A DNA stretch of 64,000 bases. Origin: Trueperaceae bacterium. GTDB lineage: Bacteria; Deinococcota; Deinococci; Deinococcales; Trueperaceae. This document shows, piece after piece, positions 34,716-61,382 of this stretch (its first letter is position 1; the number at the start of each line of letters is the position of its first letter). Both the position numbers and the translations under genes were made by a program. The notes under the pieces are model-generated. The model was given only the letters and a program-made list of their open reading frames with translations, was not told the origin of the DNA and ran no database searches. The stretch spans positions 26,655 through 90,654 of the forward strand of contig DASSXV010000087.1 in assembly GCA_035703635.1 (NCBI GenBank), in the 5' to 3' direction.

Positions 34716-37391
34716 ATGTCCAATTCTCGCGCCGCCCAGATCCGTGCAGGCGTGCTCTATGCCAAGGGGCCGCACGCTAGAGCCGCAGTTAGGTTTGTGG
34801 GCGCCGCCCTCGCCCTAGTGGCGCTCCTCGGGGGGCTCGCGAGCGCACAGAGCGCGCCCGTCGTCGGCGTGGACGCCTACGAGTACAAGGTCGGTGACGT
34901 CCTCCACTTAACTGGTGACGGGCTCACGCCGGGCGCCAGTTACCGCGTTTCGGTGACGCCAGCAGGCAGCGTGCCGCTCGTTGCCATGGAGATCGCCAAC
35001 GGCCTCGGGGCCATCCGCTTCAGCGCCCCTCTCACCGAAGCGGGCGACCACAGCGTCAACGTCGCCGGTCCCGACATCAACGCAACGTTCACCGTGGCGG
35101 TGACGGCCGCACCAACGGCGCCTGCGGGGGCGGCGCCCGGCGCCGTCGAGGGTGAACCTCAAGGCGCCGCACCGCAAGAGGCCGCCCCCGCCCCGCCTGC
35201 GGTTGAGCGGCCGCCGGCCGCACAGCCAGAGCCCACGCAGCCCGCGCCAACTGAGCCCGCTCCTGCACAGTCCGCGCCCACGGAGCCCGCTCCCACGCAA
35301 CCGCAGAGCGGCGCAACGCCGCCGGCCGCCACTCAGACGCCGCAGGAGGCGACCCCGGCGTCCCCGCCGGCCGTCTTGGGCTACCCCGTGGTGCAGAGCG
35401 TTGACGGCGCAGTCAAGGGCATGCAGAACGGCCAGGCACTGTGGACGTTGGCGTTTCCCGTAGGAAGCGGCGAGACGGCGGGGCTATTCCAGGCGGGAAC
35501 AGACGCCTACGTTGGTCACGGCAACAGCGTGCTAGTCGTCGACGCCCGCACCGGCGTGGTCCAGAAGCGCTACCGCTTGCCTGCGCAGGTAACCTCCATC
35601 ACCAACTCTGCTGGCGTGCCGCTGGCCGCCATCACCTACTCGAACGGCGCAGAGGGCCGCATCGCCATCCTCTCCTCTGGCCCTGAGGCCAGCGAGCCGT
35701 TCGACGTCGATCCGAAGCTCTACGGTTGGCTGCGCACGGAAGCGCTTGGCGAGAACCCAACCGAGCGCCTGCGGCAGGACCCGACTAACCCGTGGCTCTA
35801 CCTGGAGGCCGCCAGGGCCGCCCAACCAGGCAGCAACGACGAGGCGCGCTACATCGACGGCGCGCTCGCGAACGCCGCCACGTTCTACGAGCGGGCGCAG
35901 CTCGCGCGTGAACTCATGCGCTTCTCGCCGCCGCAGCGCGAGGCGGCAGCCAGCGCCATGTACGGCGCCCTTTCAGACTTCGTGGCGCGCGGTTACCGCG
36001 CCGAGCTCCTCTTCGATGAGACGTTGGCGGAGACATACGGCTTCCCGCTCGGCGCGCTGCAGGCCGCCTTGGGTCGCGGAGACATCCAGGCCGCCGGCTT
36101 CTGGGCAGACTGGGTCTACCCTCTCTCCACGCCGGCCGTGCCCGCGACACAAGCCGCACTGCGCGATTACGCCGATTACCTCCGCGCGGACGGTCAACGT
36201 GAGGCCGCGAGCCAGTGGCTCGAGCGTTCACGCGAGGGCGCAGGATTCGACCTGGCCGCCGCCATCAGGCAGGCAGCGCTGGACGTTGGCCGCACGGGTT
36301 GGTACGGCGTAGCTGCGCTGCTCGTCGCCCTCATCGCGCTGTACGTCACCCTAGCCGCCAAGTACTGGCGGGCGCAGAGCCTGAACCTGCGCCGCAACTC
36401 CGGCAAGGGCGGCGGGGCGCGGCTCTTCTTCTTGCGCTACGCCACCTTCACCGAGCGGCTAGTCGCCGTCCTACTCTTGGCAGCGGCGATGGCCCTCACC
36501 GGCTTGCAAGGCTGGGCGCGTGACGGCGACGCGTTGCCAGCCGCTTGGGGTTCTGGCTCGCTTGCGTCCGTGCCGTCACTCGACGCCTTGGCCCGCACCA
36601 GCGGTAGCGGCCCAGACATCGGCTTCGTGAGGGGCTACGCGGAGCAGACCGCTGGCCTGACAGATCCGGCAGCGGAGGCGTACCGCACGGCGCCGAACGA
36701 TGCAGACGCCGTCAACAACCTTGGCGTACTCACTAACGATCCGGCCCTCTACCAGCGTGCACTCGACCTCAAGCCAGGCCTGCCGGCCGCGAACTTCAAT
36801 CTTGGTCAGGGCAGCAACCCTTCGCGGCTCATGGCGGCGTTCGCTCCGGACGACAAGGCGCTCGTCGTGCCGGACGAGACGCGGTTGCGCAGCGCCGTGA
36901 CTGGCACTTTCCTAGAGGCGCTAGCCAACGTCTTCACCAACCCGTGGGCAGCCCTAACCGGCGTTGCTGGCGTTGGCGTCGCGCAGTGGGTGTGGCTCGT
37001 CATCGTCGTGGCGTTCCTCATCGTCGTGCTCTTCAACCTCATCCAGCTCGTCCTGCCGCGGCCGCGTCTAGCGCGCAACGCGCCGCGCACACCCCTTTAT
37101 CACGTGCTCGCCGTGCTCCTACCCGGCACCGGTCAGGCTGACGAGTTCTGGGGCTTGCTGCTCGCCGTGCCGTGGGCCATCTTCGGCGTCGACCTCCTGC
37201 TTCACTACGTGCCAATGGGCGTCGGACCCGCCATCAGTTACATGACGGACCTCATCGCGTTAGGCGTCATCTACCTCATCAACCTCGTGACGTTCTTCGT
37301 GGAGTTGGCCTCGTACAACAGGCGCATGCAGGCCCTCAAGGTCAACGACCCGCAAACGGCCCGCGAGTACGGCATGCGAGTCGCCGCCTGA
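34716..37391 (+). CDS. Large exported/membrane protein with Pro/Thr/Gln-rich linker and TPR-like segments
   Basis: Signal peptide, Ig-like N-terminus, EPTQPAPT repeats, 'AVNNLGVL...YQRALDLKP' TPR-like segment, C-terminal TMs. Confidence 0.75.
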   Translation: MSNSRAAQIRAGVLYAKGPHARAAVRFVGAALALVALLGGLASAQSAPVVGVDAYEYKVGDVLHLTGDGLTPGASYRVSVTPAGSVPLVAMEIANGLGAIRFSAPLTEAGDHSVNVAGPDINATFTVAVTAAPTAPAGAAPGAVEGEPQGAAPQEAAPAPPAVERPPAAQPEPTQPAPTEPAPAQSAPTEPAPTQPQSGATPPAATQTPQEATPASPPAVLGYPVVQSVDGAVKGMQNGQALWTLAFPVGSGETAGLFQAGTDAYVGHGNSVLVVDARTGVVQKRYRLPAQVTSITNSAGVPLAAITYSNGAEGRIAILSSGPEASEPFDVDPKLYGWLRTEALGENPTERLRQDPTNPWLYLEAARAAQPGSNDEARYIDGALANAATFYERAQLARELMRFSPPQREAAASAMYGALSDFVARGYRAELLFDETLAETYGFPLGALQAALGRGDIQAAGFWADWVYPLSTPAVPATQAALRDYADYLRADGQREAASQWLERSREGAGFDLAAAIRQAALDVGRTGWYGVAALLVALIALYVTLAAKYWRAQSLNLRRNSGKGGGARLFFLRYATFTERLVAVLLLAAAMALTGLQGWARDGDALPAAWGSGSLASVPSLDALARTSGSGPDIGFVRGYAEQTAGLTDPAAEAYRTAPNDADAVNNLGVLTNDPALYQRALDLKPGLPAANFNLGQGSNPSRLMAAFAPDDKALVVPDETRLRSAVTGTFLEALANVFTNPWAALTGVAGVGVAQWVWLVIVVAFLIVVLFNLIQLVLPRPRLARNAPRTPLYHVLAVLLPGTGQADEFWGLLLAVPWAIFGVDLLLHYVPMGVGPAISYMTDLIALGVIYLINLVTFFVELASYNRRMQALKVNDPQTAREYGMRVAA

Positions 37392-44358: not shown

Positions 44359-45177
44359 ATGAACGCAGATAACCAGAGCTCCCGCGGCCCTCGCATCGTG
44401 TTCGTGGGTGCCGGCCGGATGGGAGGGGCGGTCCTGCAAGGTGCGCTGGCTGCGGGCGCCCTTAAACAAGACGAGGTGGCCATCTTCCACCCCAACCCCA
44501 GGCGCCTTGCCGAACTAACGGAACGCTTTGGAGTGGCCGGCGTCGACGACGCTGGCCTTCACGACGCGCAGCACGTGCTGTTGGCCGTCAAGCCGCAGTC
44601 GTTCGCGAAAGTAGCTCCCATAGTGGCGCAGCGCCACGCCTCATTCATTTCGCTCATGGCAGGCGTAACGGCCGAGACCATCGCGCGGCGCGTCGGCTCG
44701 ATGCGCGTCATCCGCGCCATGCCGAACTTGGGAGCCGGCCTCGGAGTGGCAGCCACCGCGCTCACCTGGCTACCAGAGGCAACCGCAGACGACGTCGCCC
44801 TCGCACGCCGCCTTTTCGGCTCGGTTGGGCGCGTTTACGACTTACGCGAGGAGCTCTTCGACGCGTTCACGGGCATGGCTGGCTCCGGTCCGGCGTACGT
44901 GGCCGTCATGGCGGAGGCGCTAGCCGACGGCGGCGTGCGCGTCGGCTTAGACCGCTCGCTCGCGCGCGACGTGGCGCGGCAAGTTCTGCTCGCCTCGGCG
45001 AAGTTGCTCGAGACGCGCCACCCTAGCGAACTCAAGGACGAGGTCTCGTCGGCGGGCGGTACCGCCATCGCGGGGGTGCGCACGCTCGAGCGGCACCGCC
45101 TGCGCTTCGCGCTCATCGACGCCATCGAGGAAGCAACGCGCCGGGCAGGCGAACTAAGCGGCGAGGGCAGCAAGTGA
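44359..45177 (+). CDS. proC: Pyrroline-5-carboxylate reductase
   Basis: GAGRMG, LAVKPQ, RAMPN, GSGPAY and VSSAGGT motifs. Confidence 0.94.
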   Translation: MNADNQSSRGPRIVFVGAGRMGGAVLQGALAAGALKQDEVAIFHPNPRRLAELTERFGVAGVDDAGLHDAQHVLLAVKPQSFAKVAPIVAQRHASFISLMAGVTAETIARRVGSMRVIRAMPNLGAGLGVAATALTWLPEATADDVALARRLFGSVGRVYDLREELFDAFTGMAGSGPAYVAVMAEALADGGVRVGLDRSLARDVARQVLLASAKLLETRHPSELKDEVSSAGGTAIAGVRTLERHRLRFALIDAIEEATRRAGELSGEGSK

Positions 45178-45734
45178 GGCCGCACCTCGCCGCGTTACTC
45201 CTAGCGCTGCTACTCGGCGGCGGCGCAACGGCGCAGAGTTACTACCCCGCCGCTGCCGGCTACAGCTGGACGTACTCGTCGGGCGAGACGCAGTCCATGA
45301 CCGGCCCGCGCGACCTACAGGGCCGCAGCGTCATGGTTCTAACGCACTACCTCGAGGGCGTGCCCGTCTCGGAGGACTACCTCGCCTACCGCGCCGATGG
45401 CGTCATCAGCTACGGTTCTGCCTCCGGCGGCCAGCTCTTCCCTTACGACCCACCGATCCTCGTCTACCCAGCCGAACCCCTCGCGCCCGGCAGCAAGTGG
45501 ACGAGCACGACGCAACTCCCCGGGTTCAGCCTCACCCTCGACTCCGAGGTCGTCGGCCTGCGCGGGGTAGCGACGCAAGCTGGGCGCTTCAACGCCTTGC
45601 TCATCCGCCAGACGACGCTGACTAGCAACGGCGGGCAGACGTTGCTCGACATCTACTTCGTTCCAACGGTCGGCATCGTGCGCTTCGTGACGCAAGACGG
45701 CACGACCATCGACTTGATCGAGAAGAGCTTCTAG
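45174..45734 (+). CDS. Hypothetical exported protein
   Basis: Signal peptide; 'SYYP...GYSWTYS' and 'V.T.AG.F' beta-rich fold. Confidence 0.7.
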   Translation: MRPHLAALLLALLLGGGATAQSYYPAAAGYSWTYSSGETQSMTGPRDLQGRSVMVLTHYLEGVPVSEDYLAYRADGVISYGSASGGQLFPYDPPILVYPAEPLAPGSKWTSTTQLPGFSLTLDSEVVGLRGVATQAGRFNALLIRQTTLTSNGGQTLLDIYFVPTVGIVRFVTQDGTTIDLIEKSF

Positions 45735-47002
45735 GCCCCCTGCGGCACGACGCGACGCCACAGCTCGTCGAACGTGCCAGCGACCAGCGCCTCGCGGATG
45801 TCTTGCATGAGGCGCGCCATGAACCGCAGGTTGTGGATGGTCGCTAGTTGCGGCCCGAGCGCCTCGCCCGCCTTGAAGAGGTGGCGCAGGTAGGCGCGCG
45901 TGAAGGTCCGGCACGTGTAGCAGTCGCAGCCGCTCTGCACGGGGCCGAGGTCGTCCTTGAATCGCGCGTTGATGATGTTGAGGCGGCCGTTACGCCCGCC
46001 GTCGCCCAAGTTGGGGCGCACTAGCAGCGTGCCCGTGCGGGCGTTGCGCGTGGGCATCACGCAGTCGAAGGTGTCTATGCCGCGTGCCACGGCCTCGAAG
46101 ATGCTCGGAACGTCACCTATGCCTAGCAGGTGTCTAGGCTTGTCAGGCGGCAGGAGCGGCAGCGTCCAGTCGAGGATGGCGTACATATCCGCCCGCGTGG
46201 CGCCGAGGTTCCCGCCCACCGCGAGGCCGTCGAAGCCCATCGCGCCGATGACGGTGGCACTATCGATCCGTTGGTCGCGGAACGCGCCGCCTTGCACGAT
46301 GCCGTAGAGCGCCTGGCGGTACCCGTGCAACGGAGCGCTAGCGCGAAACGCCGTTAGGCTGCGCTGCGCCCAGCGGTGCGTGCGCTCGAGCGAGCGCCTG
46401 GTGTACGCCTCGTCGTGCAGTGGGCTAGTGCACTCGTCGAAGGCGAGGACCATGTCTGCCCCGAGTTGGCGCTGAACCCTGATAGAAGTCTCGGGATCGA
46501 AGCGGTGCTTCGAGCCGTCGATGTGGCTCTTGAACTCGACCCCGTCCTCGTCGACCTTGACCATGCCAGCCGCCGCGGCTAGCCGCCGTTGCCCCGCCTT
46601 CTGGTCCTCACCAGGGAAGATGTTGCCGATCTTCCCTACCCCGTGCTCGATCGCGGCGCCGAGGGAGAAGACCTGGAAGCCGCCCGAGTCCGTTAGGATC
46701 GGCGCGTCCCAGTTCATGAAGCGGTGCAAGCCCCCGTGAGCGGCTACGAGCTCGGCTCCTGGCCGCAGGTAAAGGTGATAGGTGTTGGCGAAAAGTACCT
46801 GCGTGCCCGTCTCCGCCACGGCAGCGGGCGTGAGGCTCTTGACGGTCGCTTGCGTACCTACCGCCACGAAGGCAGGCGTGTCGACGCAACCGTGAGCAGT
46901 GGTGAGGCGCCCAACGCGCGCCGTCGCCTGTGTCTGCGTTACCTGGAAATCAAGTCCAGCGGCTGGCGTCTCGGTTGGCGTGGTGCTCGAAGCAGATGGC
47001 AT
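45731..47002 (-). CDS. tgt: tRNA-guanine transglycosylase
   Basis: NTYHL, LTDSGGFQVFSL, DECT, PRHLLGIG, FDCVMPTRNAR and CDCYTC motifs. Confidence 0.95.
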   Translation of the reverse strand: MPSASSTTPTETPAAGLDFQVTQTQATARVGRLTTAHGCVDTPAFVAVGTQATVKSLTPAAVAETGTQVLFANTYHLYLRPGAELVAAHGGLHRFMNWDAPILTDSGGFQVFSLGAAIEHGVGKIGNIFPGEDQKAGQRRLAAAAGMVKVDEDGVEFKSHIDGSKHRFDPETSIRVQRQLGADMVLAFDECTSPLHDEAYTRRSLERTHRWAQRSLTAFRASAPLHGYRQALYGIVQGGAFRDQRIDSATVIGAMGFDGLAVGGNLGATRADMYAILDWTLPLLPPDKPRHLLGIGDVPSIFEAVARGIDTFDCVMPTRNARTGTLLVRPNLGDGGRNGRLNIINARFKDDLGPVQSGCDCYTCRTFTRAYLRHLFKAGEALGPQLATIHNLRFMARLMQDIREALVAGTFDELWRRVVPQGA

Positions 47003-47060
47003 GGTTCCGCCCCTCGCGGGCCTGTCATCCTATCAGACAGCACTGGTAGGTTCTTCACTC

Positions 47061-47085
47061 ACATGTCGCCCTCATGTGCTATAGT
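47061..47085 (+). promoter_or_regulatory. Extended -10 promoter (TGcTATAGT) with adjacent ACATG-N7-CATGT inverted repeat
   Basis: TATAGT at 47080-47085, ~28 nt before the first riboswitch aptamer. Confidence 0.5.
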
Positions 47086-47112
47086 CTCCGGCTAGAGGGC
47101 AACTGCCTTCTG

Positions 47113-47184
47113 CTTGGACGCTGAGAAACCTGCCTCGTATGTGGGCGCTTGAGACAGGTGGAGCGAGTAGCGCAACCGGCCAGG
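47113..47184 (+). ncRNA. c-di-GMP-II riboswitch aptamer 1
   Basis: P1 CTTGG/CCAGG; GAA-stem-TGGGCGCTT-stem-TGGAG; 3' AGTAGCGCAACCGGC with pseudoknot GCGCT/AGCGC. This matches the class II pattern (TGAA..TGGGCACTT..TGGAG..AGTAGTGCAACC.GC). Confidence 0.85.
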
Positions 47185-47279
47185 TGAGTGTCCCCTCATC
47201 TACCAAAGCCGTCAACGTCCGAGCGCGGGTCCCACATGACCCGCAGCCCGAGTCGTTCGGGCACCGACGCTTAGTCGGA

Positions 47280-47351
47280 CTTGGAAGCTATGAAGTCTGT
47301 TCTGCATTTGGGCGCTTGGAACAGATGGAGCGAGTAGCGCAACCGGCCAAG
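47280..47351 (+). ncRNA. c-di-GMP-II riboswitch aptamer 2
   Basis: P1 CTTGG/CCAAG; GAAGCTATGAAG TCTGTTC..TGGGCGCTT..GAACAGA TGGAGCGAGTAGCGCAACCGGC; stem sequences covary relative to aptamer 1. Confidence 0.9.
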
Positions 47352-47435
47352 GGACACGCGAACAGGCAACCATAGCGTTGCTATATAGCGGAGGAGCCGG
47401 ACGAGCGCCCAGGACCAAGCGGGTCCAGGGATGCC

Positions 47436-48446
47436 ATGACGGGACGAGCTAAGCGAAACGCGGGTCACTCCAACGAACGGGCGTACGGCGCTCGGTTCAG
47501 CTTCGCCGTGCTTATCATTACCGCCATGCTCGTGCTTAGCGGCTGCAGCACCACGGAAGTCCTTACTGCCACCAACCACGACGCTGAGACGCGCACCGCT
47601 AGCCTCCAGAGCAGCACGATGTTCGGCGCCTTCACGTACGGCGGGGTATGGCAAGGGCTCGAGCCCATCCTGCAGCTCGAGTTAAACTTGGGCCGCCGCC
47701 TCGATGTCGTGCACTGGTTCACGAACTGGGAGAACCCCTACTTCCCCGACCTCGTCACCCTGGCGTCCCAAGGCGGACGCAAGCCGTTGATCAGCTGGCA
47801 GAGCCACAACCAGTCCAACGCTGACATCGCTGCGGGAGTCTACGACGACTACATCCGCGACTGGGCTCGCGGCGCAGCCACGGCAAGCGGCCCGATCTAC
47901 GTGCGGCTCTTCCCCGAAATGAACGGCAGCTGGACGAACTGGAACGGCGACCCAGCCGCGATGGCCGCCGCCTGGCGCCATGTGGTCGACCTCTTCCGCC
48001 AGGAGGGCGCCTACAACGTGCAGTGGGTGTTCAGCCCGAACGTAACGGACTCGCCACGCACCGCAGAGAACGCCATGGAGCTCTACTACCCGGGCGACGA
48101 TTACGTCGACGTCCTCGCCCTGGACGGCTACAACTGGGGCGAAACGCTTCCTGAAACCGGCGGTTGGCGCTCGTTCGAGGACGTCTTCCGCGTGGGTTAC
48201 GACCGCATCACGGCGATCGGCCCGCAACCAGTTTGGATCGCCGAGTTCGCTAGTTCAGACGAGGGTGGCGACAAGAGCGCTTGGGTGCGCGACATGTTCG
48301 CGACCACCGGCTTCCAGCGCATCGAGGCGCTCATCTGGTTCAACGAGGACAAGGAAGCCGACTGGCGGATAGACTCAGACGCCGCCACGCTCCAGGCCTT
48401 CCGCGACTCGCTGTCAAGCGGCACCGTGCTAGCCAGCACGCGCTGA
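47436..48446 (+). CDS. GH26 glycoside hydrolase lipoprotein
   Basis: Lipobox LSGC; RLFPEMNG (acid/base Glu), YYPGDDYVDVLALDGYN, WIAEFA (nucleophile Glu) and WFN motifs. Confidence 0.88.
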   Translation: MTGRAKRNAGHSNERAYGARFSFAVLIITAMLVLSGCSTTEVLTATNHDAETRTASLQSSTMFGAFTYGGVWQGLEPILQLELNLGRRLDVVHWFTNWENPYFPDLVTLASQGGRKPLISWQSHNQSNADIAAGVYDDYIRDWARGAATASGPIYVRLFPEMNGSWTNWNGDPAAMAAAWRHVVDLFRQEGAYNVQWVFSPNVTDSPRTAENAMELYYPGDDYVDVLALDGYNWGETLPETGGWRSFEDVFRVGYDRITAIGPQPVWIAEFASSDEGGDKSAWVRDMFATTGFQRIEALIWFNEDKEADWRIDSDAATLQAFRDSLSSGTVLASTR

Positions 48447-48562
48447 TAAACGCGCAAAGCACCTAGCCAGTTTCTCAACGCAGGCGTCTTGAGAACCAAC
48501 GGTGTGAGGTGTTACCTTCGTATGGAACCTCACAGCGGACCTCCGTCCGCCAACCGGACTGG

Positions 48563-49648
48563 ATGAAAGAGACCGCTATCACCCCCACCAGGCTGTTGTG
48601 GCCCCGCCCCAAGTGGGCCCTACGGTTGCGCATCGTGGCAACTGGCCTGGCGACGGCCCTGATCTTGGCGGCATGCTCGGAACCAACCCGCGTCCACAAG
48701 GACGTGTTCGCTGGCGACACTCCAGTGCTCGGAGCGTTCGTGCCGTCCGGGGTGTGGAACGACTTGAGGCCGCTAAAGGCGCTGGAAACGCGCGTCGGTG
48801 GGTCGTTCGCGTTAGCGCACTGGTACACGTCTTGGGACCTCCCGTACGATCCCGTGCCGGTCAACAACCTGCTCGCCCACGGCCGCATCCCGTTCGTCAC
48901 CTGGCAAGCGCACCGTCAATCGTTGCCTGACATCATCTCCGGGCGTTACGACAGCTACATCAAGACCTGGGCTCACGGCGTCCGCGACGCGGCAGGCGTC
49001 GTCTACGTGCGGATCTTCCCGGAGATGAACGGCGACTGGGCCCCGTGGAACGGCGACCCGGAGGCCATGAAGGCCGCCTGGAAGCACGTCGTCGACCTGT
49101 TCAGGGCCGAAGGCGTCCGCAACGTCAAGTGGGTCTTCACCCCTAACGTCACCGACGAGCCGCGCGTGCCAGAGAACGCCATGGAGCTCTACTACCCTGG
49201 CGCAGACTACGTCGACGTGATCGGCCTCGACGGCTACAACTGGGGAACTACTAGGCCGAACATCGGGTGGCGCACATACGAAGAGGTGTTCGAGGCGGGT
49301 TACGACCGCATCACTAGCCTGGGCGACCAACCCGTGTGGCTAGCAGAAGTCGCGTCCGCCGAACTCGGTGGCGACAAGGGCGGTTGGGTCGATGACATGT
49401 TGACCTCGACGGCGTTCCCCCGCATCAAGGCCATCGTCTGGTTCAACGAGGACAAAGAAACCGACTGGCGCATGGAGAGTTCAGCCGGATCGCTCGACGC
49501 TTTCAGGAAGCACTTCGAGGTTCTGGCGGAGGCGGAACAGGCCATCGAAGAGGCGGGCCTCGAGGCGACTCGGGTAGGCGGAACTTTGGCTACGTCAAGC
49601 GTCCGCGCAGGAGCAGGGGGCGATGGGCGTTACATTGAGCGCAAATGA
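48563..49648 (+). CDS. GH26 glycoside hydrolase lipoprotein (paralog)
   Basis: Lipobox LAAC; RIFPEMNG, YYPGADYVDVIGLDGYN and WLAEVA motifs; start could alternatively be 48509. Confidence 0.88.
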   Translation: MKETAITPTRLLWPRPKWALRLRIVATGLATALILAACSEPTRVHKDVFAGDTPVLGAFVPSGVWNDLRPLKALETRVGGSFALAHWYTSWDLPYDPVPVNNLLAHGRIPFVTWQAHRQSLPDIISGRYDSYIKTWAHGVRDAAGVVYVRIFPEMNGDWAPWNGDPEAMKAAWKHVVDLFRAEGVRNVKWVFTPNVTDEPRVPENAMELYYPGADYVDVIGLDGYNWGTTRPNIGWRTYEEVFEAGYDRITSLGDQPVWLAEVASAELGGDKGGWVDDMLTSTAFPRIKAIVWFNEDKETDWRMESSAGSLDAFRKHFEVLAEAEQAIEEAGLEATRVGGTLATSSVRAGAGGDGRYIERK

Positions 49649-50934
49649 ACAACGAAACTGGCCGCAACCGCCGTCGCCGTAACCAGCTCGGTCGCGGTCT
49701 TTGTATCTGGCTAGCCGTCTTGCTGGGGGTCCCGGCCGCGGCGGCACAGGCACACGCGCCTGACCCTGCTTACCTCACCCCGCGACCGCTGAGCCGCACC
49801 ACCTACCAGCTCGACGTGCTCGCCTCCGGCATCTACGCCCCCGTCGACGCCGTGCCCCTGGACGACACTGGCGCCATCCTAGTCGTCACCCTCGACGGCA
49901 CCGTCATGCGCTATCAAGATGGTGAGGTCGACCCGCGGCCGTTCCTCTCGCTTACCGGCCGCGTGACTGGCCTGCTCGGGGAGCAGGGCCTGTTCTCGAT
50001 CGCCCTCGAGCCGGCCAAGCATGCCGCCGCGCTCGGCGGTCCCCGCCACCTGATCGCCGCTTTCACCGAGGCGGGCACGAACGATCTGGTAGTCGCTGCG
50101 TACCCGCTCCTCGCAGACCTAAGCGGGGCGCTGCGGGGAGCCGAGTCCATCATCCTGCGCCAAGCCGTTCCGGAGCCGTTCCACCACGGCGGCCAGGTGG
50201 CGTTCGGCCCGGACGGCCTGCTGTACGTAAGCATCGGTGACGGTCAGCGCGAGGTCGCATACCTGCACGTCCAGCCGCACGTCGCCCAGGACCTGCGTTC
50301 CTTGCGCGGGAAGGTACTGCGCATAGATCCGTTCACTGGCGGCGCAAACCGTGCGTACACCGTCCCGGCCGACAACCCCTTCACCGCGCAAAGCGATCCG
50401 AAGGCCGCCTCAGCAGGTGCGCGGGGCGAGATCTGGGCGTACGGGTTCCGCAACCCGTGGAAGTTCAGCTTCGCGGCCTCTGACGGCGCTTTGCTCCTCT
50501 CGGACGTTGGTGAGGACCGCTGGGAAGAGATCGACGTGGTCGTCAGAGGCGGCAACTACGGTTGGCCTGCCCGTGAGGGGCCAGAGTGCCTCCTGCATCT
50601 CGAGGACGGCTCCCCTGTCGCGCCTGATTGCGAGGACCTCGACCTCGTCGCGCCCGCGGCCTCTTACGGCCACCCGGCGATAGATCCTAGCGGGGGGTTC
50701 TCCGTGACCGGAGGCGTGGAGGTCATCGACCCGACGCTGCCGTCGCTGGTTGGCAAGTACGTGTTCGGAGACTTCGTCACGGGACGCATGTGGACGCTAG
50801 ACAGGGCGACCAGCGAGGTGAACCTGATCATGCAGGGAGTCGGCGCCATCTCAAGCTTCGCCAACGACTCGAGCGGCGCCCTCTTGGTCACGTTGATTGA
50901 TGGCACCCTCGCGCGCATACGCGAAGTGCATTAG
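49645..50934 (+). CDS. PQQ-dependent glucose/sorbosone dehydrogenase family protein, exported
   Basis: EQGLFSIA, HHGGQVAFGPDGLLYVSIGDG, LRGKVLRID, EIWAYGFRNPWK and GGNYGWP motifs. Confidence 0.9.
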   Translation: MNNETGRNRRRRNQLGRGLCIWLAVLLGVPAAAAQAHAPDPAYLTPRPLSRTTYQLDVLASGIYAPVDAVPLDDTGAILVVTLDGTVMRYQDGEVDPRPFLSLTGRVTGLLGEQGLFSIALEPAKHAAALGGPRHLIAAFTEAGTNDLVVAAYPLLADLSGALRGAESIILRQAVPEPFHHGGQVAFGPDGLLYVSIGDGQREVAYLHVQPHVAQDLRSLRGKVLRIDPFTGGANRAYTVPADNPFTAQSDPKAASAGARGEIWAYGFRNPWKFSFAASDGALLLSDVGEDRWEEIDVVVRGGNYGWPAREGPECLLHLEDGSPVAPDCEDLDLVAPAASYGHPAIDPSGGFSVTGGVEVIDPTLPSLVGKYVFGDFVTGRMWTLDRATSEVNLIMQGVGAISSFANDSSGALLVTLIDGTLARIREVH

Positions 50935-50959
50935 CGCCCCCACCACGTTACTCGGTGGC

Positions 50960-53788
50960 TTAGGTCTGGTCGGCAGGGGTGGAGCGCGGCATGGTTGGCA
51001 CGTAGCTCTCGCCGTACAGCCTGTTCCTGATGGAGTCGTAGAGCGGCACGTCTTTGATCTGGAAGCTCTGCACTAACTCGGCGGTCACGAAGTAGGCCTG
51101 ACCAACCGTGACGGTACCGTCTGCCACGAGGTTGGTGACACCTAGCAGCGCACGCTCTTCGTTCGTGACGTTGGCGGGGTCCTCGCGGAAAGCCGCGATC
51201 GTGGCAGCTAACGCCTTGGCGAGCGGCTTGAGGTCGTCGATGGCCATGACCAGCTCACTGTGGCGTTGGCTGATCTTGCCCCTGACCACCCCTTCAAGCG
51301 GGTTGATGTAGCGGGCGTAGGCGAAGTGCTCGTCGTCGCCGTCCGGCTGCGCCTGCGCCCACGCGAGCTTGGCGGCGCCCGCGCAGATGGAGAAGTCTGG
51401 ATCGAACACGGAGAACGTGCCCGCGAAGAAGGTGCTGTTGGCGAACGGAGACAGTGGATCGACCGAGATGGCCTTGATGAGGGTAAGGGCGTCGTTCGTG
51501 ACTTGCGAGAGCCCAAGGTCGCCCGTGGGTCCGATCGCCAACGGATCCAGGTACGACTCGTTCAACAGCACGCGCAGGAGCAGGTCTGGCGAGACGTCGT
51601 AGGCCGTAGCAGCCAGCTCGATGTTCGCCACGAGCGGCGCTAGGCGCGCCAGCACGAGCAGGCCCCAAGCCGACAGCGGCGTGTAGTCCGCCACCTGCCC
51701 GTCGAGCAGGCGTGGCCCGCTGGCTGGGCGAGCTACGGCGTCGACGCCGCAGTATGCCGACACGCGCCGCGGACCCTGCTTGGCCCCGGTCACCTGCAGG
51801 CCGAGGCTCGCTAACGGCGAGTTGAGCAGGTCGTCGATGCGCTGGGCAACCGCCTCGCTCGGAACGTCTACTTCGGTGACGGCGGCACTTTCGCTCGACG
51901 CTATCGTCTCTTCCGCTGCTTCCGCTACTTCCGCTACTTCCGCTACATCCGCTACATCCGCTGCGCCAGCGGCGCCTAGCTCCGCTTGGCCCGCAGCGCC
52001 TTCTGGCGCGGCGTTCGCGGCAGCTACAGGGGTCTCACCTGCCGGGCTACTACCGCCGACGTCCGGCTCAGCGTCCGTTAGGTCGTTCCCCTTAACGGAC
52101 AACGGCAGGTTCATGTGCTCACTTCGTAGCACCGGGACGGAACCGTTGATGAGCCGCCACGTGTCTCGGTAACCGGGACGCGTTTCGCCAGCACTCCAAG
52201 CGGTGACCACGAAGACGCTCGAGGCAACCAACAACAGCGCTCCCGTGCCGCCGAAGAACCTAAGTTGCGTCCTGCCCGTGGTCTTGGCATGCGGCCTTTC
52301 CCACGTGATGGTGGTGCGCGGATCCAACTCGTGGCGCTTAGAGAAGCTGCGTACCGCGCGCACTCCCCCAGTCACGAAGGTGATCGCGTTGAAGATGCGC
52401 AGCACCCCAAGCGCAAGCACGGAGCGAGCCCCCTGGCGCGCCACCCACCCTCCAAGCCGCCAGTTCTTGAACCCCAGGCCAACGCCAAGGCGCAGGAAGC
52501 CCCAGACCGCAAGCAGGCCCGTCATGAACACGTCAACACCCAACCAGACGAGCAGCGCCTCCAATGGCATGCCGTGACCTGGCAGCGCGAAGTTCAGGCC
52601 CATCGCTAACGGAAGCATCACGAGGAGCAGGAGGAGGCCGAGGAGGTTCTCGAAGTGTGCGGCCAACAAGGTGAAGCGCACGTTCGCCCGCAGCCCGCGC
52701 CACGTTTCCGGCACGAAGAAGCGCTTGAGGCCGTTCTCCACCCCACCGCCGTTCCAGCGCTCGATCTGCCTGAGGTAGCCTGGCAGGCTCAGCGGGTCGT
52801 CCGTGAACATGAGCGCCTCGCTGACGAACCTGGCGTTGCCGCCGCGCCGCATGGTGATGGGCGACTCACCCGTCACCGTCCCGACGTCCACTAGTTCACC
52901 AGCTACGAGCGCACTGAACCCCCGCTCGCGCAGCTCGTCGACGCTGATCGCAGTCTCCGTGACGGGTCCGTTCTGCACCGCCAGCGTGAAGTCGTGGTCC
53001 TCCGTCAGGGTGTCAGACGGCATCGGGAAGCACTCGCGCCGCGTGGTGAAACCGCAGCCAACCACGGTGTAAAGGCGCGAGTTACCGAAGATCTTGCTCG
53101 CACCGAACCGCGCCGTCTGCCCGCTGCGCAGCACCGCCGAGATGGCGTACTCGGCCGACCGCGCCCGGTGGATCAGGCCGCCGACGGGCTTCCCTCGGCC
53201 CGGACTGGACGACAGTACGGCGCCAGACTGGATGGCGTAGTCCTCGAGCACGAAGCGCGCCTTAGCGCCTCGCCCCAGCTTCCTCAAGCGGTAGAAGTTC
53301 GCCTTGAGGCCGGCGAGGAAGTCCTCGTGAAAGACGGTATCGCCGTCAACTAGGAGCACCCGCTCCGTGTTGAGCAAGCCGCCATCGAGCGCCACGTTGA
53401 TGCTGTCTGACTTCGAGATCGGCTGGGCGTGCTCCACGACCGCGACTATTGGGCCGTTCGTGAGCAGCCAGCGCTCGTAGGTAGCGGTCGCTCCAGGCAC
53501 GTGACCCTTGTCGATGGCCCTGTAACCGTACTCCGTCAAGGTCCGCCTTACGACTTCGCCCGTCGCGTCGGAGCCACCGTTGATGCTCACGACGATCTCG
53601 TCGATCGGCGAGCTCTGCCTCAGGAGCGACGACAGTGCGGCTGCGGCGCTCGCCTCTTCGTTGAACATGGGCGAGACGACGCCAACGCGGTCCGGCCCGA
53701 TCACGGGCACGGACGAGTCTTTCGTTAGGCTTAACAAGGCGTTCGCGATCACCGTCGGGGTTGCGAAGAGGCCAGGGATGAACGGCAT
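50960..53788 (-). CDS. Processive GT2 polysaccharide synthase fused to a C-terminal SLT/GH23-like domain
   Basis: PMFNEE, VDGD, LTEDHD, QIERW, TM helices, acidic/Ala linker, then AATAYDVSPDLLLRVLLNESYLDPLAIGPTGDLGLSQV. Confidence 0.82.
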   Translation of the reverse strand: MPFIPGLFATPTVIANALLSLTKDSSVPVIGPDRVGVVSPMFNEEASAAAALSSLLRQSSPIDEIVVSINGGSDATGEVVRRTLTEYGYRAIDKGHVPGATATYERWLLTNGPIVAVVEHAQPISKSDSINVALDGGLLNTERVLLVDGDTVFHEDFLAGLKANFYRLRKLGRGAKARFVLEDYAIQSGAVLSSSPGRGKPVGGLIHRARSAEYAISAVLRSGQTARFGASKIFGNSRLYTVVGCGFTTRRECFPMPSDTLTEDHDFTLAVQNGPVTETAISVDELRERGFSALVAGELVDVGTVTGESPITMRRGGNARFVSEALMFTDDPLSLPGYLRQIERWNGGGVENGLKRFFVPETWRGLRANVRFTLLAAHFENLLGLLLLLVMLPLAMGLNFALPGHGMPLEALLVWLGVDVFMTGLLAVWGFLRLGVGLGFKNWRLGGWVARQGARSVLALGVLRIFNAITFVTGGVRAVRSFSKRHELDPRTTITWERPHAKTTGRTQLRFFGGTGALLLVASSVFVVTAWSAGETRPGYRDTWRLINGSVPVLRSEHMNLPLSVKGNDLTDAEPDVGGSSPAGETPVAAANAAPEGAAGQAELGAAGAADVADVAEVAEVAEAAEETIASSESAAVTEVDVPSEAVAQRIDDLLNSPLASLGLQVTGAKQGPRRVSAYCGVDAVARPASGPRLLDGQVADYTPLSAWGLLVLARLAPLVANIELAATAYDVSPDLLLRVLLNESYLDPLAIGPTGDLGLSQVTNDALTLIKAISVDPLSPFANSTFFAGTFSVFDPDFSICAGAAKLAWAQAQPDGDDEHFAYARYINPLEGVVRGKISQRHSELVMAIDDLKPLAKALAATIAAFREDPANVTNEERALLGVTNLVADGTVTVGQAYFVTAELVQSFQIKDVPLYDSIRNRLYGESYVPTMPRSTPADQT
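51912..51965. repeat. 9-bp tandem repeat x6 (TCCGCTRCN) in the GT2-SLT linker
   Basis: tccgctgct tccgctact tccgctact tccgctaca tccgctaca tccgctgcg; encodes AADVADVAEVAEVAEAAE. Confidence 0.9.
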
Positions 53789-54019
53789 GGGTTCGGTAAT
53801 CCTTCCGACTCTGCTATATCACGCCAAAACTTACACGCTTCATACACACATCGAACGGGACAGGTTAACTGCTGCACGTAAGAATAGGTGGCTAGCGGAA
53901 CACGTCGCCTCCACCCACTAGCGAGGCCGCCGAAGTTAACTCGCCTTAACCAACGCAGTGAGCATTATGTGCGAACTCTCACACTTCGTCTGCTAGTATG
54001 CCGCGATTGGGAGGTGCAG

Positions 54020-54637
54020 ATGGCTCTGCACATCAGCGGCAAGCTCCTGGCCCTCGGGCTAGTGATCTCTGCCCTCATCACCGCCTTCAGCGCACCACGC
54101 ACGGAACCCGTCGTTCCTGTGGAGCTCGCGGTCGCCCCCTTCGCTGAGGTTCTTACCGTTTCGGTCGTCGCACCAGTCGGCCTCGCGCTTCAAGGGCCTG
54201 ACGCTAACCCTCGCATGACTTTGAGGGCAACGGGCTACAACTCTCACGAGAGCCAGACAGACGCGTCGCCGTTCACTACCTCCACGGGTGCGAGGACGCG
54301 CTTCGGGATCGTGGCGGTAAGCCGCGACCTGCTAGGCGGCAGCCTGCCATACGGTTCGCTCGTGCGCATCCGTGACCTCGGCAACTATCACACTGGTAGG
54401 GGAGCAGGCTCCTTCCAGGCGCTGCTAGACGACCAACTCTTCATAGTGGAGGACACCATGCACGCGCGCAAGACGCTGCAGGTGGACGTCTGGTTCGAGA
54501 GTTACTCGCAAGCGGTCAGTTGGGGCGTACGCAAGGTAGAAGTCGAGCTCATTCGCTACGGTCGTTCAGGCTCCGAGCTCATGCCAGCGGTAGCAACTGA
54601 CTTCCAGACGGTACCAACACTGCTCGCCTCGCGCTAA
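54020..54637 (+). CDS. 3D-domain (MltA-like) exported protein
   Basis: ATGYNS..SQTD..PFTTSTG, VAVSRD, LPYGS and VEDTMH...VDVW motifs; GGAGG RBS. Confidence 0.85.
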   Translation: MALHISGKLLALGLVISALITAFSAPRTEPVVPVELAVAPFAEVLTVSVVAPVGLALQGPDANPRMTLRATGYNSHESQTDASPFTTSTGARTRFGIVAVSRDLLGGSLPYGSLVRIRDLGNYHTGRGAGSFQALLDDQLFIVEDTMHARKTLQVDVWFESYSQAVSWGVRKVEVELIRYGRSGSELMPAVATDFQTVPTLLASR

Positions 54638-54645
54638 CCTCAGGC

Positions 54646-55827
54646 GTGCGAACGCTCGTACCCTACCTAGCCTGGCGTCACGTTCGGCGGCGTGGCCTGC
54701 AGTCTGCCCTCACCGTTTCTGGGGTGGCCGTGGGCGTTGCCGTGCTCATCATCGCGCTGTCGTTGACGAACGGCTTCATAGATGAGCTGATCTCGAGCAC
54801 GCTTCGCGCCACGCCCATGCTCACCCTCCAGAGCTTCATCCCTGGAGACACGTTGCCGGACGACCCTTCCCTGTTGGCGGCGCTCACCGCCGAGCCGGGC
54901 GTGACCGCGGCCGCGCCGTTCCTCTCCGGGCAGGCGCTGATAGCGCGCCGCGCCAGCCAGTCGCTCGGGGTAACGGCAAGGCAAGGGTTCACGCAGGTGA
55001 TCGGGATAGACACCGACCTCGAGACTGCCGTCCTCGACCTTCCGGTCCTAGCCAGCCAAGCGGAGGCGCTCTCTCGGTCGGGAGGGGTGGTGCTCGGCTC
55101 CAGCCTGGCGCAGTCGCTCGGCGTTGCGGTTGGCGACACCGTCATGCTGCGCGACATAACGGGCGCCACCGCGCAGTTCACGGTGGCAGGCACCTTCCGT
55201 GTAGGCAACGAACTCATAGACTCCGTGACCTCGTACATGTCCCTCGCTAACCTGCAGGACTACCTCGGCGTCGATAACGCCATCACCGGCTACCACTTGC
55301 GGCTCGCGAACCCGACTGCAGCGCACTCCGTCGGCCTTGACCTCGCAGGCAAGTACTCGTTGCGCCCCATCAGTTGGGAGAGCCTCTTCGCGAGCCTCAT
55401 CTCGCAACTCCGGCTCCAGAAGGCCGTGATCGGCGTCGTGGTGTTCCTCATCGTCATCGTGGCGGCCTTCGGCATCACCAACGTGCTCGTCCTTACCGTG
55501 TCGGAGAAGACGGAGGACATCGCCATCCTCAGGGCGCTTGGCGCCTCCGAACGCCAGATCCTGGCGACTTTCACACTAGAAGGGTTCATGCTCGGCGGGG
55601 CCGGCACGCTGTTAGGCGCCGTGCTCGGCCTGCTCGTCGCCGCGTACTTCAAGTTCCAACCGTACCCACTGCCTGGCGACCTGTACTTCATCACCCAGCT
55701 GCCCGTGCAACTGCAGGCGTTCGACGTCCTGTGGGTGTGCGCCGTCTCGCTAGCCACCAGCGTCATCGCTGGGTTGCTGCCCGCACGCCGCGCCTCGCGC
55801 CTCGACCCCGTAGCGGTACTGCGCTGA
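54646..55827 (+). CDS. LolC/E-type (FtsX/MacB family) ABC permease
   Basis: GVAVGVAVLIIALSLTNGF, IAILRALGA and LPARRASRLDPVAVLR motifs. Confidence 0.88.
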   Translation: MRTLVPYLAWRHVRRRGLQSALTVSGVAVGVAVLIIALSLTNGFIDELISSTLRATPMLTLQSFIPGDTLPDDPSLLAALTAEPGVTAAAPFLSGQALIARRASQSLGVTARQGFTQVIGIDTDLETAVLDLPVLASQAEALSRSGGVVLGSSLAQSLGVAVGDTVMLRDITGATAQFTVAGTFRVGNELIDSVTSYMSLANLQDYLGVDNAITGYHLRLANPTAAHSVGLDLAGKYSLRPISWESLFASLISQLRLQKAVIGVVVFLIVIVAAFGITNVLVLTVSEKTEDIAILRALGASERQILATFTLEGFMLGGAGTLLGAVLGLLVAAYFKFQPYPLPGDLYFITQLPVQLQAFDVLWVCAVSLATSVIAGLLPARRASRLDPVAVLR

Positions 55828-56590: not shown

Positions 56591-56668
<78 letters not shown>

Positions 56669-61307: not shown

Positions 61308-61382
61308 TGGCTCGGCGGGTAGGATTTGAACCTACGACCAATCGGTTAACAGCCGATCGCTCTGCCGCTGAGCTACCGCCGA
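61308..61382 (-). tRNA. tRNA-Asn(GTT)
   Basis: TCGGCGG acceptor stem; anticodon arm ATCGG-CTGTTAA-CCGAT; GGTTCAAATCC; G discriminator + CCA. Confidence 0.97.

Follow-up and report, generated by a model that had tools for sequence, protein, structure and literature searches.

We analysed a stretch of 64,000 nucleotides (nt) from a Trueperaceae genome (contig DASSXV010000087.1; hereafter the window) and describe in it four carbohydrate-active genes which probably constitute a synthase-dependent surface-glycan cassette confined to the family Trueperaceae. The source genome has a size of 2.9 Mb, in 88 contigs, and is 97.65% complete; by the source names of homologous proteins and loci, its relatives belong to Trueperaceae (Deinococcota). 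The cassette encodes two lipoproteins of the glycoside hydrolase family 26, GH26a (47436-48446, + strand) and GH26b (48509-49648, +), and an exported protein (GSDH; 49645-50934, +) of the glucose/sorbosone dehydrogenase family, a family of the pyrroloquinoline quinone (PQQ) type. Converging on this operon, with the stop codons 25 nt apart, is the gene for a glycosyltransferase of family 2 fused to an SLT domain (GT2-SLT; 50960-53788, − strand). Two class II riboswitch aptamers for cyclic di-GMP (c-di-GMP-II) precede GH26a. An earlier note on this DNA had named the aptamer pair, the two lipoproteins, the exported dehydrogenase and the convergent synthase, and all of them were confirmed by Rfam, by Pfam matches above cut-off (GH26, GSDH, GT2 and SLT), by lipoboxes and by a signal peptide. 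The note had also counted a neighbouring “3D-domain” gene as fifth member. This gene does not belong to the unit, which consists of one or more riboswitches, one or two GH26 genes, GSDH and GT2-SLT.

The synthase has 942 aa. Its residues 1-560 (52109-53788, −) form the GT2 catalytic domain and the membrane helices, as delimited by motifs, AlphaFold2 and Foldseek, and its residues 676-927 (51008-51763, −) a GH23-type SLT domain. Both halves were recognized by Pfam within the one protein, with matches among three GT2 models that included Glyco_trans_2_3 (27.4 bits, cut-off 27) and Glycos_transf_2 (24.4 bits, cut-off 23.3), and an SLT match at residues 723-825 (30.8 bits, cut-off 21.3). SLT (PF01464) is also among the precomputed domains of most of 117 GT2-SLT homologues. 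The D,D,D,QxxRW motifs were found as DGD (148-150), TED (262-264) and QxxRW (341-345), all invariant in 44 homologues. Equally invariant in the SLT domain were N743-E744-S745 and G759..Q762, the N-E-S motif being presumably the catalytic Glu-Ser motif of lytic transglycosylases. Searches of NCBIfam returned partial sub-threshold matches only (the best, PgaC_IcaA, with 23.7 bits against a cut-off of 422), and no match was found in a PDB sequence search.

The AlphaFold2 model of GT2-SLT had a mean predicted local distance difference test (pLDDT) score of 85.6, with >90 in the SLT domain and <50 in a disordered linker (residues 567-673). Foldseek retrieved yeast Chs1, the hyaluronan synthases of a Chlorella virus and of Xenopus, and BcsA (E 1e-9 to 1e-7, ~560-680 columns), with TM-scores by query length of just 0.25-0.32. 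Structural matches in a protein atlas reached TM-scores of 0.64-0.65 over residues 5-502 and came from generic GT2 clusters only. In the predicted structure, the N-terminal part folds like the chitin, hyaluronan and cellulose synthases. Hydrophobic segments were located at residues 372-405, 407-440, 454-476 and 509-535. If residues 442-483 are interface helices, we infer that the GT domain is cytoplasmic and the SLT domain lies outside the membrane; only with this assignment does such a topology fit both hydropathy and the positive-inside rule.

The GT2 part had 85 matches at E ≤0.001 and 34 at E ≤1e-30 in a set of 1.84 billion representative proteins. Nine unfused homologues (476-517 aa, 26-32% identity) carried GT2 domains only. 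In one synthase variant (P0094, 1265 aa), ~500 additional residues separate the membrane part from the SLT domain. In another genome, G032, the only one with GH26 and GSDH away from the synthase, the synthase (L055:8618-11292) was split into two overlapping open reading frames (ORFs) of 445 and 521 aa, by a frameshift or an assembly error.

Both GH26 proteins scored well above the Pfam cut-off of 20.2 bits (GH26a, 336 aa, 43.5 bits; GH26b, 47.2 bits). The lipobox was LSGC in GH26a and LAAC in GH26b. The two are paralogous, with 54% identity (tblastn), and the PEMNG and AEVAS motifs are retained in GH26b, for which the start codon is uncertain. In a PDB search, residues 70-329 of GH26a matched the GH26 domain of Clostridium thermocellum endoglucanase H (2v3g, 2bv9; E 5e-46). 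The lichenase chains had E values from 5e-46 to 2e-44, versus 4e-7 for the best mannanase. E161 and E270 of GH26a aligned with E109 and E222 of the endoglucanase H chain, which we take to be the lichenase CtLic26A, with residues 109 and 222 as its catalytic pair. By sequence, the GH26 enzymes belong to the lichenase branch, with CtLic26A of C. thermocellum as nearest relative. Solely because of this resemblance we suggest a mixed-linkage product; our tentative candidate for the polymer is a beta-glucan, possibly of mixed linkage.

The GSDH gene starts within GH26b, overlapping its stop codon by 4 nt. It encodes a beta-propeller protein with a signal peptide ending in AQA and a GSDH match over residues 66-415 (Pfam, 107.3 bits, cut-off 25). 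The nearest solved chains (3a9g, 2ism, 3das and 2g8s; E 8e-19 to 1e-13) are deposited as “Glucose/sorbosone dehydrogenases” or putative oxidoreductases. A search for pqqC (TIGR02111) gave no match in the source genome, but none in any control genome either.

The leader of the GH26 operon starts with a sigma-70-like promoter site (47058-47085, +), composed of CTCACA, a 16-nt spacer and TG-n-TATAGT as extended −10 element (9/12 matches plus the TG extension). The pattern TTCAC...TGCTAnnnT was kept upstream of aptamer 1 in 13 orthologous leaders, and in one RNA-library run a contig joined to an adapter ended at 47103, which weakly suggests a 5′ end close by. Aptamer 1 (47107-47190, +; 69.7 bits, E 1.4e-13) and aptamer 2 (47274-47357, +; 73.1 bits, E 1.5e-14) both matched Rfam RF01786 over its full length (model positions 1-84 of 84) and above its gathering score of 53.5 bits. 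A GCGCU loop paired with an AGCGC 3′ tail in 24 of 25 aligned aptamers, and the remaining one, from the source genome (L059:6546-6631), had GCAUC with GAUGC, changed on both sides. We take this pairing to be the pseudoknot of the c-di-GMP-II family.

Aptamer 1 is followed by a platform (47220-47262, +), defined by its sequence, its fold and its conservation in orthologous leaders. It contains a CGAGCGC element (47220-47226), complementary to the aptamer loop and overlapping a hairpin, GCGGGTC/GACCCGC (47225-47244). A second hairpin, GCCCGA..TCGGGC (47246-47262; GCCCGAnCnGUUCGGGC), was near-invariant between the aptamers, being found in 12 of 13 orthologous spacers and more conserved than its surroundings; the platform has no U-tract. 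Canonical intrinsic terminators were found neither after the two aptamers nor between the convergent genes, where the 25-nt gap holds just a weak CCACC/GGTGG hairpin.

Downstream of aptamer 2, the RNAalifold consensus revealed a putative switch element, GCCGG-ACGA-GCGCCC (47396-47410, +), complementary to the aptamer CCGGC and to the invariant loop GGGCGCUU. The leaders share it as CCGG..RAGCGCCY. An 8-nt complement to GGGCGCUU was present in 43 of 51 GH26-proximal leaders, compared with 9.4 on average and 19 at most in shuffles, and with 26 of 78 coding controls. The C-rich end of the switch element is at the same time the 5′ arm of a hairpin, CCCAGGACC/GGTCCAGGG (47408-47430, +), recognized by fold, RNAalifold and covariation. 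Its 3′ arm holds the ribosome-binding site (RBS) AGGGA (47427-47431), just 5′ of the ATG of GH26a at 47436. In 12 orthologues, 95.3% of the 107 cells of this RBS hairpin were paired and three of its nine pairs were changed on both sides; its covariation score was reached by none of 500 shuffles, and slid controls paired at ≤61%. As read from these alignments, the leader is a relay of three elements, namely the aptamer loop, the switch element and the ribosome-binding site. Another fold, in which the 5′ strand of P1 pairs with the anti-Shine-Dalgarno sequence (anti-SD), fitted the window and, by eye, not its orthologues, and was dropped.

To follow the cassette beyond the window we surveyed genomes that are kin, and the counts are thus not counts of independent events. 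Strong GT2-SLT matches were found in 27 of the 36 other genomes of the family. Four sister families, with 24 genomes in all, gave no strong match, only weak partial GT2 or SLT matches with E values of 2.5e-6 or worse. Among the 37 family genomes, the source genome included, 26 had both a strong GH26 match and the synthase, eight had neither and three were discordant. In the first of these (G035) the contig ended at a riboswitch just past the synthase, the second (G028) had only a weak GH26 elsewhere, and the third (G020) encoded a 43%-identical GH26 and no synthase. Riboswitch, GH26, GSDH and synthase are gained or lost as a block between the housekeeping gene tgt and the 3D gene.

A neighbourhood scan with one genome per species covered 70 loci. 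The expectation of the earlier note that the genes stay together in related genomes held across the family, with a GH26 gene adjoining the synthase in 56 loci. In six others (L106, L108, L116, L118, L119 and L120) the synthase was directly followed, on the same strand, by the gene of a right-handed beta-helix protein of ~500-550 aa, with a gap of 5-14 nt in L116 and L120. In the remaining eight loci the sequence broke off 6 to 660 nt beyond the synthase. The 3D and lolC genes were absent upstream in eight GH26 loci, though at least 2.5 kb was present there, and the orientation of the two arms varied, being co-directional in L086 (synthase, two riboswitches, GH26) and divergent in L135. Therefore, the link between synthase and GH26 is not just frozen synteny. 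Such changes of context, and the non-orthologous replacement of one glycanase-type gene by another, are stronger arguments than the counts.

GSDH was present in 38 of the 56 GH26 loci. A riboswitch model built from 25 aptamers matched in 49 of them, and the seven loci without a match had at most 2,534 nt beyond the synthase. One riboswitch was found in 21 of the 49 loci, two in 26, three in one and four in one. In the loci with three and four aptamers (L122:12965-15593 and L124:14064-16960, respectively) each GH26 gene had its own riboswitch or tandem pair, so that riboswitch and GH26 gene appear to be duplicated together. In two lineages (L113, equal to L054:11232-12386, and L114:3021-3926) the synthase gene has as neighbour, in the same orientation, a gene for a polysaccharide deacetylase of family CE4, which hints that the polymer may be acetylated there. 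The beta-helix proteins that follow the synthase are 32-44% identical to each other (examples are L116:4265-5890, L120:12532-14052 and L055:11398-13050). They are distantly related to a protein encoded on contig C66 of the source genome, and not to the riboswitch-controlled beta-helix protein on its contig C49.

In the source genome we detected seven c-di-GMP-II riboswitches and 11 GGDEF proteins. PilZ was absent from GT2-SLT (Pfam) and from the whole genome, in a search that was positive in five control genomes, Deinococcus radiodurans and Thermus thermophilus not being among them. This agrees with the earlier note, which had seen no PilZ-type domain on the synthase and had proposed an RNA-based c-di-GMP input on the hydrolase arm, where the aptamers indeed precede the GH26 operon. 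Downstream of the remaining five riboswitches are a GH114 gene, a Pel/GAG-like operon, a gene pair for a beta-helix protein and a GT4 (here the riboswitches are again in tandem) and genes for Big_7/FG-GAP surface proteins. Because of the seven riboswitches, the 11 GGDEF proteins, the lack of PilZ and the matrix genes downstream, the c-di-GMP output of this organism appears to be largely RNA-based and directed at the matrix. Contigs from the RNA libraries of three sludge studies covered the leader, both GH26 genes, GSDH and the synthase; they speak for presence only, as DNA carry-over is possible and levels, ends and strand are not given by them.

Four of the class II riboswitches lie within 22 kb on contig C49, in a c-di-GMP island (C49:4491-31630; L058, L059). 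One precedes GH114, one the Pel/GAG-like operon, and a tandem pair the genes for a 662-aa beta-helix protein and a GT4, with a 47%-identical paralogue of the beta-helix protein nearby. The Pel/GAG-like operon encodes a 275-aa unknown protein, an Agd3-like deacetylase (CBM87+CE), a PelF-like protein (GT4+DUF3492), a 441-aa unknown protein and a GH114-like protein. The GH114 leader was tried as a guide to polarity, as a terminator-type ON switch, and was rejected, its fold being without a clear terminator (z −1.3).

From these findings we propose the following model. The processive GT2 synthase would polymerise a sugar in the cytoplasm and thread the chain through its own membrane helices, while its C-terminal SLT domain, outside the membrane, would cut the peptidoglycan locally, so that the chain can pass the wall. 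The one or two GH26 lipoproteins would be endo-glycanases that trim or degrade the polymer of the synthase, and the exported PQQ-type aldose dehydrogenase, usually encoded too, would oxidise the released reducing ends. Acting via one to four c-di-GMP-II riboswitches, c-di-GMP would control the hydrolase arm alone. The proximal riboswitch is predicted to work on translation, with an element behind the aptamer that pairs either with the pseudoknot loop or with the ribosome-binding site. Ligand binding would free this switch element and the RBS hairpin would close, so that the glycanases would be made at low c-di-GMP and be off at high c-di-GMP.

Several observations weigh against parts of this model, first of all against the direction of the switch. 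We infer that c-di-GMP turns the GH26/GSDH genes OFF, since a ligand-locked aptamer should free the switch element to close the RBS hairpin, and we hold this to be only slightly better than an even chance, because RNAfold cannot model the competition with the pseudoknot and gave no consistent difference in RBS accessibility between the free and the blocked aptamer in 11 orthologous leaders. The accessibility in the window leader was 0.48 free versus 0.21 blocked, most other leaders were unchanged and one (L043) showed the opposite. The RBS hairpin was predicted in both aptamer states. Moreover, the characterised class II c-di-GMP riboswitches of Clostridioides difficile are ON switches. The same cassette could thus follow the opposite logic, with c-di-GMP switching the GH26/GSDH operon ON and the glycanases co-produced with the polymer, an alternative that we consider a serious one, though somewhat below even. 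It would match BcsZ, PslG, PelA and PgaB, which are encoded in the operons of their synthases and support secretion, and it agrees with the other c-di-GMP-II riboswitches of the genome, whose downstream genes, for matrix and adhesins, should go up with c-di-GMP. The thermodynamic modelling favours neither direction. Against this alternative, the competition between loop, switch element and ribosome-binding site in the leader is the layout of an OFF switch. ON switches usually use the 3′ strand of the aptamer itself as anti-SD, and no conserved pairing between aptamer and ribosome-binding site was found in the RNAalifold consensus or in the complement and covariation tests.

Further points concern the product and the partnership of the two arms. 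The connection between the GH26 enzymes and the product of the synthase is one of genes; GH26 suggests a beta-glucan or a mannan, but the CE4 genes in L113 and L114 and the nearest folds, which are synthases using N-acetylglucosamine, fit an N-acetylated polymer. With the four hydrophobic segments of the hydropathy profile read as four spans, the SLT domain would be cytoplasmic. It is unlikely, in our view, that GT2-SLT builds a wall-bound polymer, such as a secondary cell-wall or septal glycan, instead of a biofilm exopolysaccharide, and that GH26 serves in wall remodelling during growth. The fusion to a peptidoglycan-cutting domain would suit such a role, as would the housekeeping flanks, the lack of an outer-membrane porin, TPR scaffold or co-polymerase gene nearby, and the accompanying CE4 deacetylase in two loci, given that the CE4 family includes peptidoglycan deacetylases. 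However, the c-di-GMP control and the matrix operons in the regulon suggest biofilm, and the cassette is dispensable, both arms being absent in eight of the 37 family genomes. Less probable still is that the riboswitch-GH26-GSDH operon is an independent c-di-GMP-regulated unit, which acts on foreign or other matrix glycans (in foraging or competition) and is only carried along with the synthase. In its favour, each arm is a transcription unit of its own and the two converge, they lie on different contigs in G032, G020 has its GH26 without a synthase, and GSDH is missing from 18 of the 56 GH26 loci. Against such independence, wherever the flanking DNA is long enough, which is so in 62 loci, a glycanase-type gene stands beside the synthase, and this across several orientations and backbones, the beta-helix protein replaces the missing GH26 within the operon of the synthase itself, and presence or absence of the arms agrees in 34 of the 37 family genomes.

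That c-di-GMP governs a synthase together with its cognate hydrolase is a well-known logic. In Bcs/BcsZ, Pga/PgaB, Pel/PelA, Psl/PslG and the clostridial Ccs/CcsZ, a membrane synthase has a partner hydrolase for its polymer, in the periplasm or at the surface, and the output is under the control of c-di-GMP. In the Bcs, Pga and Pel type of system, protein sensors (PilZ, PgaCD, PelD) act on the synthase, whereas the Trueperaceae cassette has a predicted RNA sensor on the hydrolase genes, a synthase with an SLT domain and no PilZ in the genome. Unlike the Bcs, Pga, Pel, Psl and Ccs systems, it has no co-polymerase, TPR or porin genes nearby. The pairing under c-di-GMP is on record, in the published passages concerned, for CcsZ (PMC7710045) and for PslG and PelA (bioRxiv 10.1101/032714). 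In rhizobia (BgsBA) and Romboutsia (RiGT2), GT2 synthases with D,D,D,QxxRW motifs are described whose product is a (1,3;1,4)-beta-glucan sensitive to lichenase; the C-terminal domain of BgsA binds c-di-GMP, which activates BgsA, and a PilZ domain is part of RiGT2 (PMC5567048, PMC10374906). As far as these descriptions go, neither is fused to an SLT domain, which sets both apart from the Trueperaceae synthase.

In composition, the closest analogue is the CslA-GlxA-CslZ-LpmP system of Streptomyces, in which a cellulose-synthase-like GT2, an oxidase, an endoglucanase and a peptidoglycan-remodelling enzyme are reported to bring a glycan to the surface (PMC9040799). The Streptomyces oxidase is the copper radical enzyme GlxA and the wall opener a lytic polysaccharide monooxygenase, encoded by separate genes (PMC9040799). 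The Trueperaceae cassette has instead a GH23-type SLT fused to the synthase, a GH26 glycanase, a PQQ-type GSDH and a riboswitch-controlled hydrolase arm, and beyond the GT2 the two systems have no sequence relationship. Tandem class II aptamers are also on record, with 59 doublets and nine triplets in which each aptamer has its own platform, mostly before a surface-anchor gene in Paraclostridium and relatives; the passages of that survey on these arrays do not name an association with Trueperaceae or GH26 (PMC9481103). What seems new in the cassette is the fusion of SLT to a synthase, the company of GH26 or beta-helix proteins with a PQQ-type dehydrogenase, and an RNA on the hydrolase arm as the sole visible c-di-GMP input. 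The earlier note had recognised no described system of this composition, and we likewise found none in the full-text literature searched, the gene lists of the founding c-di-GMP-II paper being outside its coverage.

Exopolysaccharide systems of the synthase-dependent kind form the chief output of c-di-GMP signalling, and in the studied cases a protein reads the signal and acts on the synthase. In the Trueperaceae cassette the signal would be read by an RNA, placed on the hydrolase genes. If the OFF reading is true, the polymer level would be set by regulated degradation, a different control logic that bears on biofilm dispersal. One could go further and suppose that the Trueperaceae, apparently without PilZ receptors, run their matrix via RNA, with tandem riboswitches that turn the glycanases OFF, a polymer that accumulates by silenced degradation rather than by activation of its synthase, and a synthase that needs no partner to pass the wall, since a lytic transglycosylase is built into it. 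We regard this full picture as rather doubtful. It would comprise three firsts, namely a c-di-GMP-II OFF switch, an RNA-gated matrix-degrading or dispersal arm, and an exopolysaccharide synthase fused to a peptidoglycan-cutting domain. How a nascent glycan crosses the peptidoglycan is, to our knowledge, understood in the Streptomyces CslA system alone, and the GT2-SLT fusion would be a compact and testable answer to this question. The synthase family is narrow, and its product may be a new polymer. Trueperaceae occur in sludge communities, where RNA libraries contain the cassette locus.

The cassette is inserted between housekeeping genes. Upstream are argG, argH, a GNAT gene, an asparaginase gene, proC, a 186-aa ORF and tgt (45731-47002, −; Pfam), and downstream the 3D ORF, a lolC/E-like permease gene (54646-55827; Pfam, NCBIfam), recX and others. 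In the annotation of these flanks there was no porin, TPR, co-polymerase or PilZ gene near the cassette.

The 3D ORF (54020-54637, +) encodes a protein of 205 aa, by fold prediction a putative membrane-anchored double-psi beta barrel. ATG 54020 is probably the true start, because the homologues start there and a strong ribosome-binding site (GGGAGGTG) is present. The earlier assignment as a 3D-domain gene was confirmed only in part: neither the 249-aa nor the 205-aa form had any Pfam match, PF06725 included, at E values up to 10, and none of the 120 listed homologues had a precomputed Pfam domain, although some of them are named “3D domain-containing” by one source. The protein had no match in a PDB sequence search. 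Its model (pLDDT 73) showed a membrane helix at the N-terminus and, behind it, a beta barrel, for which Foldseek retrieved bacterial expansins (1.6e-4), YuiC (3.4e-3) and MltA (1.5e-2), all with TM-scores ≤0.4. D103, D119, E144-D145 and D156 were invariant. As a member of the module the gene was rejected. Of 61 related genomes, 59 carry it, with each of the five families of the order represented and with some genomes that lack the cassette among them, and five family members lacking the cassette have the order proC-(hypothetical)-tgt<>3D-lolC. Since it lies directly beside tgt where the cassette is missing, the 3D gene is part of a conserved tgt / 3D-lolC backbone.

The 186-aa ORF between proC and tgt (45174-45734, +) had no Pfam or NCBIfam match and was kept in most relatives, with 47-86% identity. 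An 891-aa ORF (34716-37391, +) had no Pfam match at E ≤1e-4; since it overlaps the ORF of an EamA transporter, it is perhaps not a genuine gene. The window also contains two tRNA genes (56591-56664, + and 61311-61382, −).

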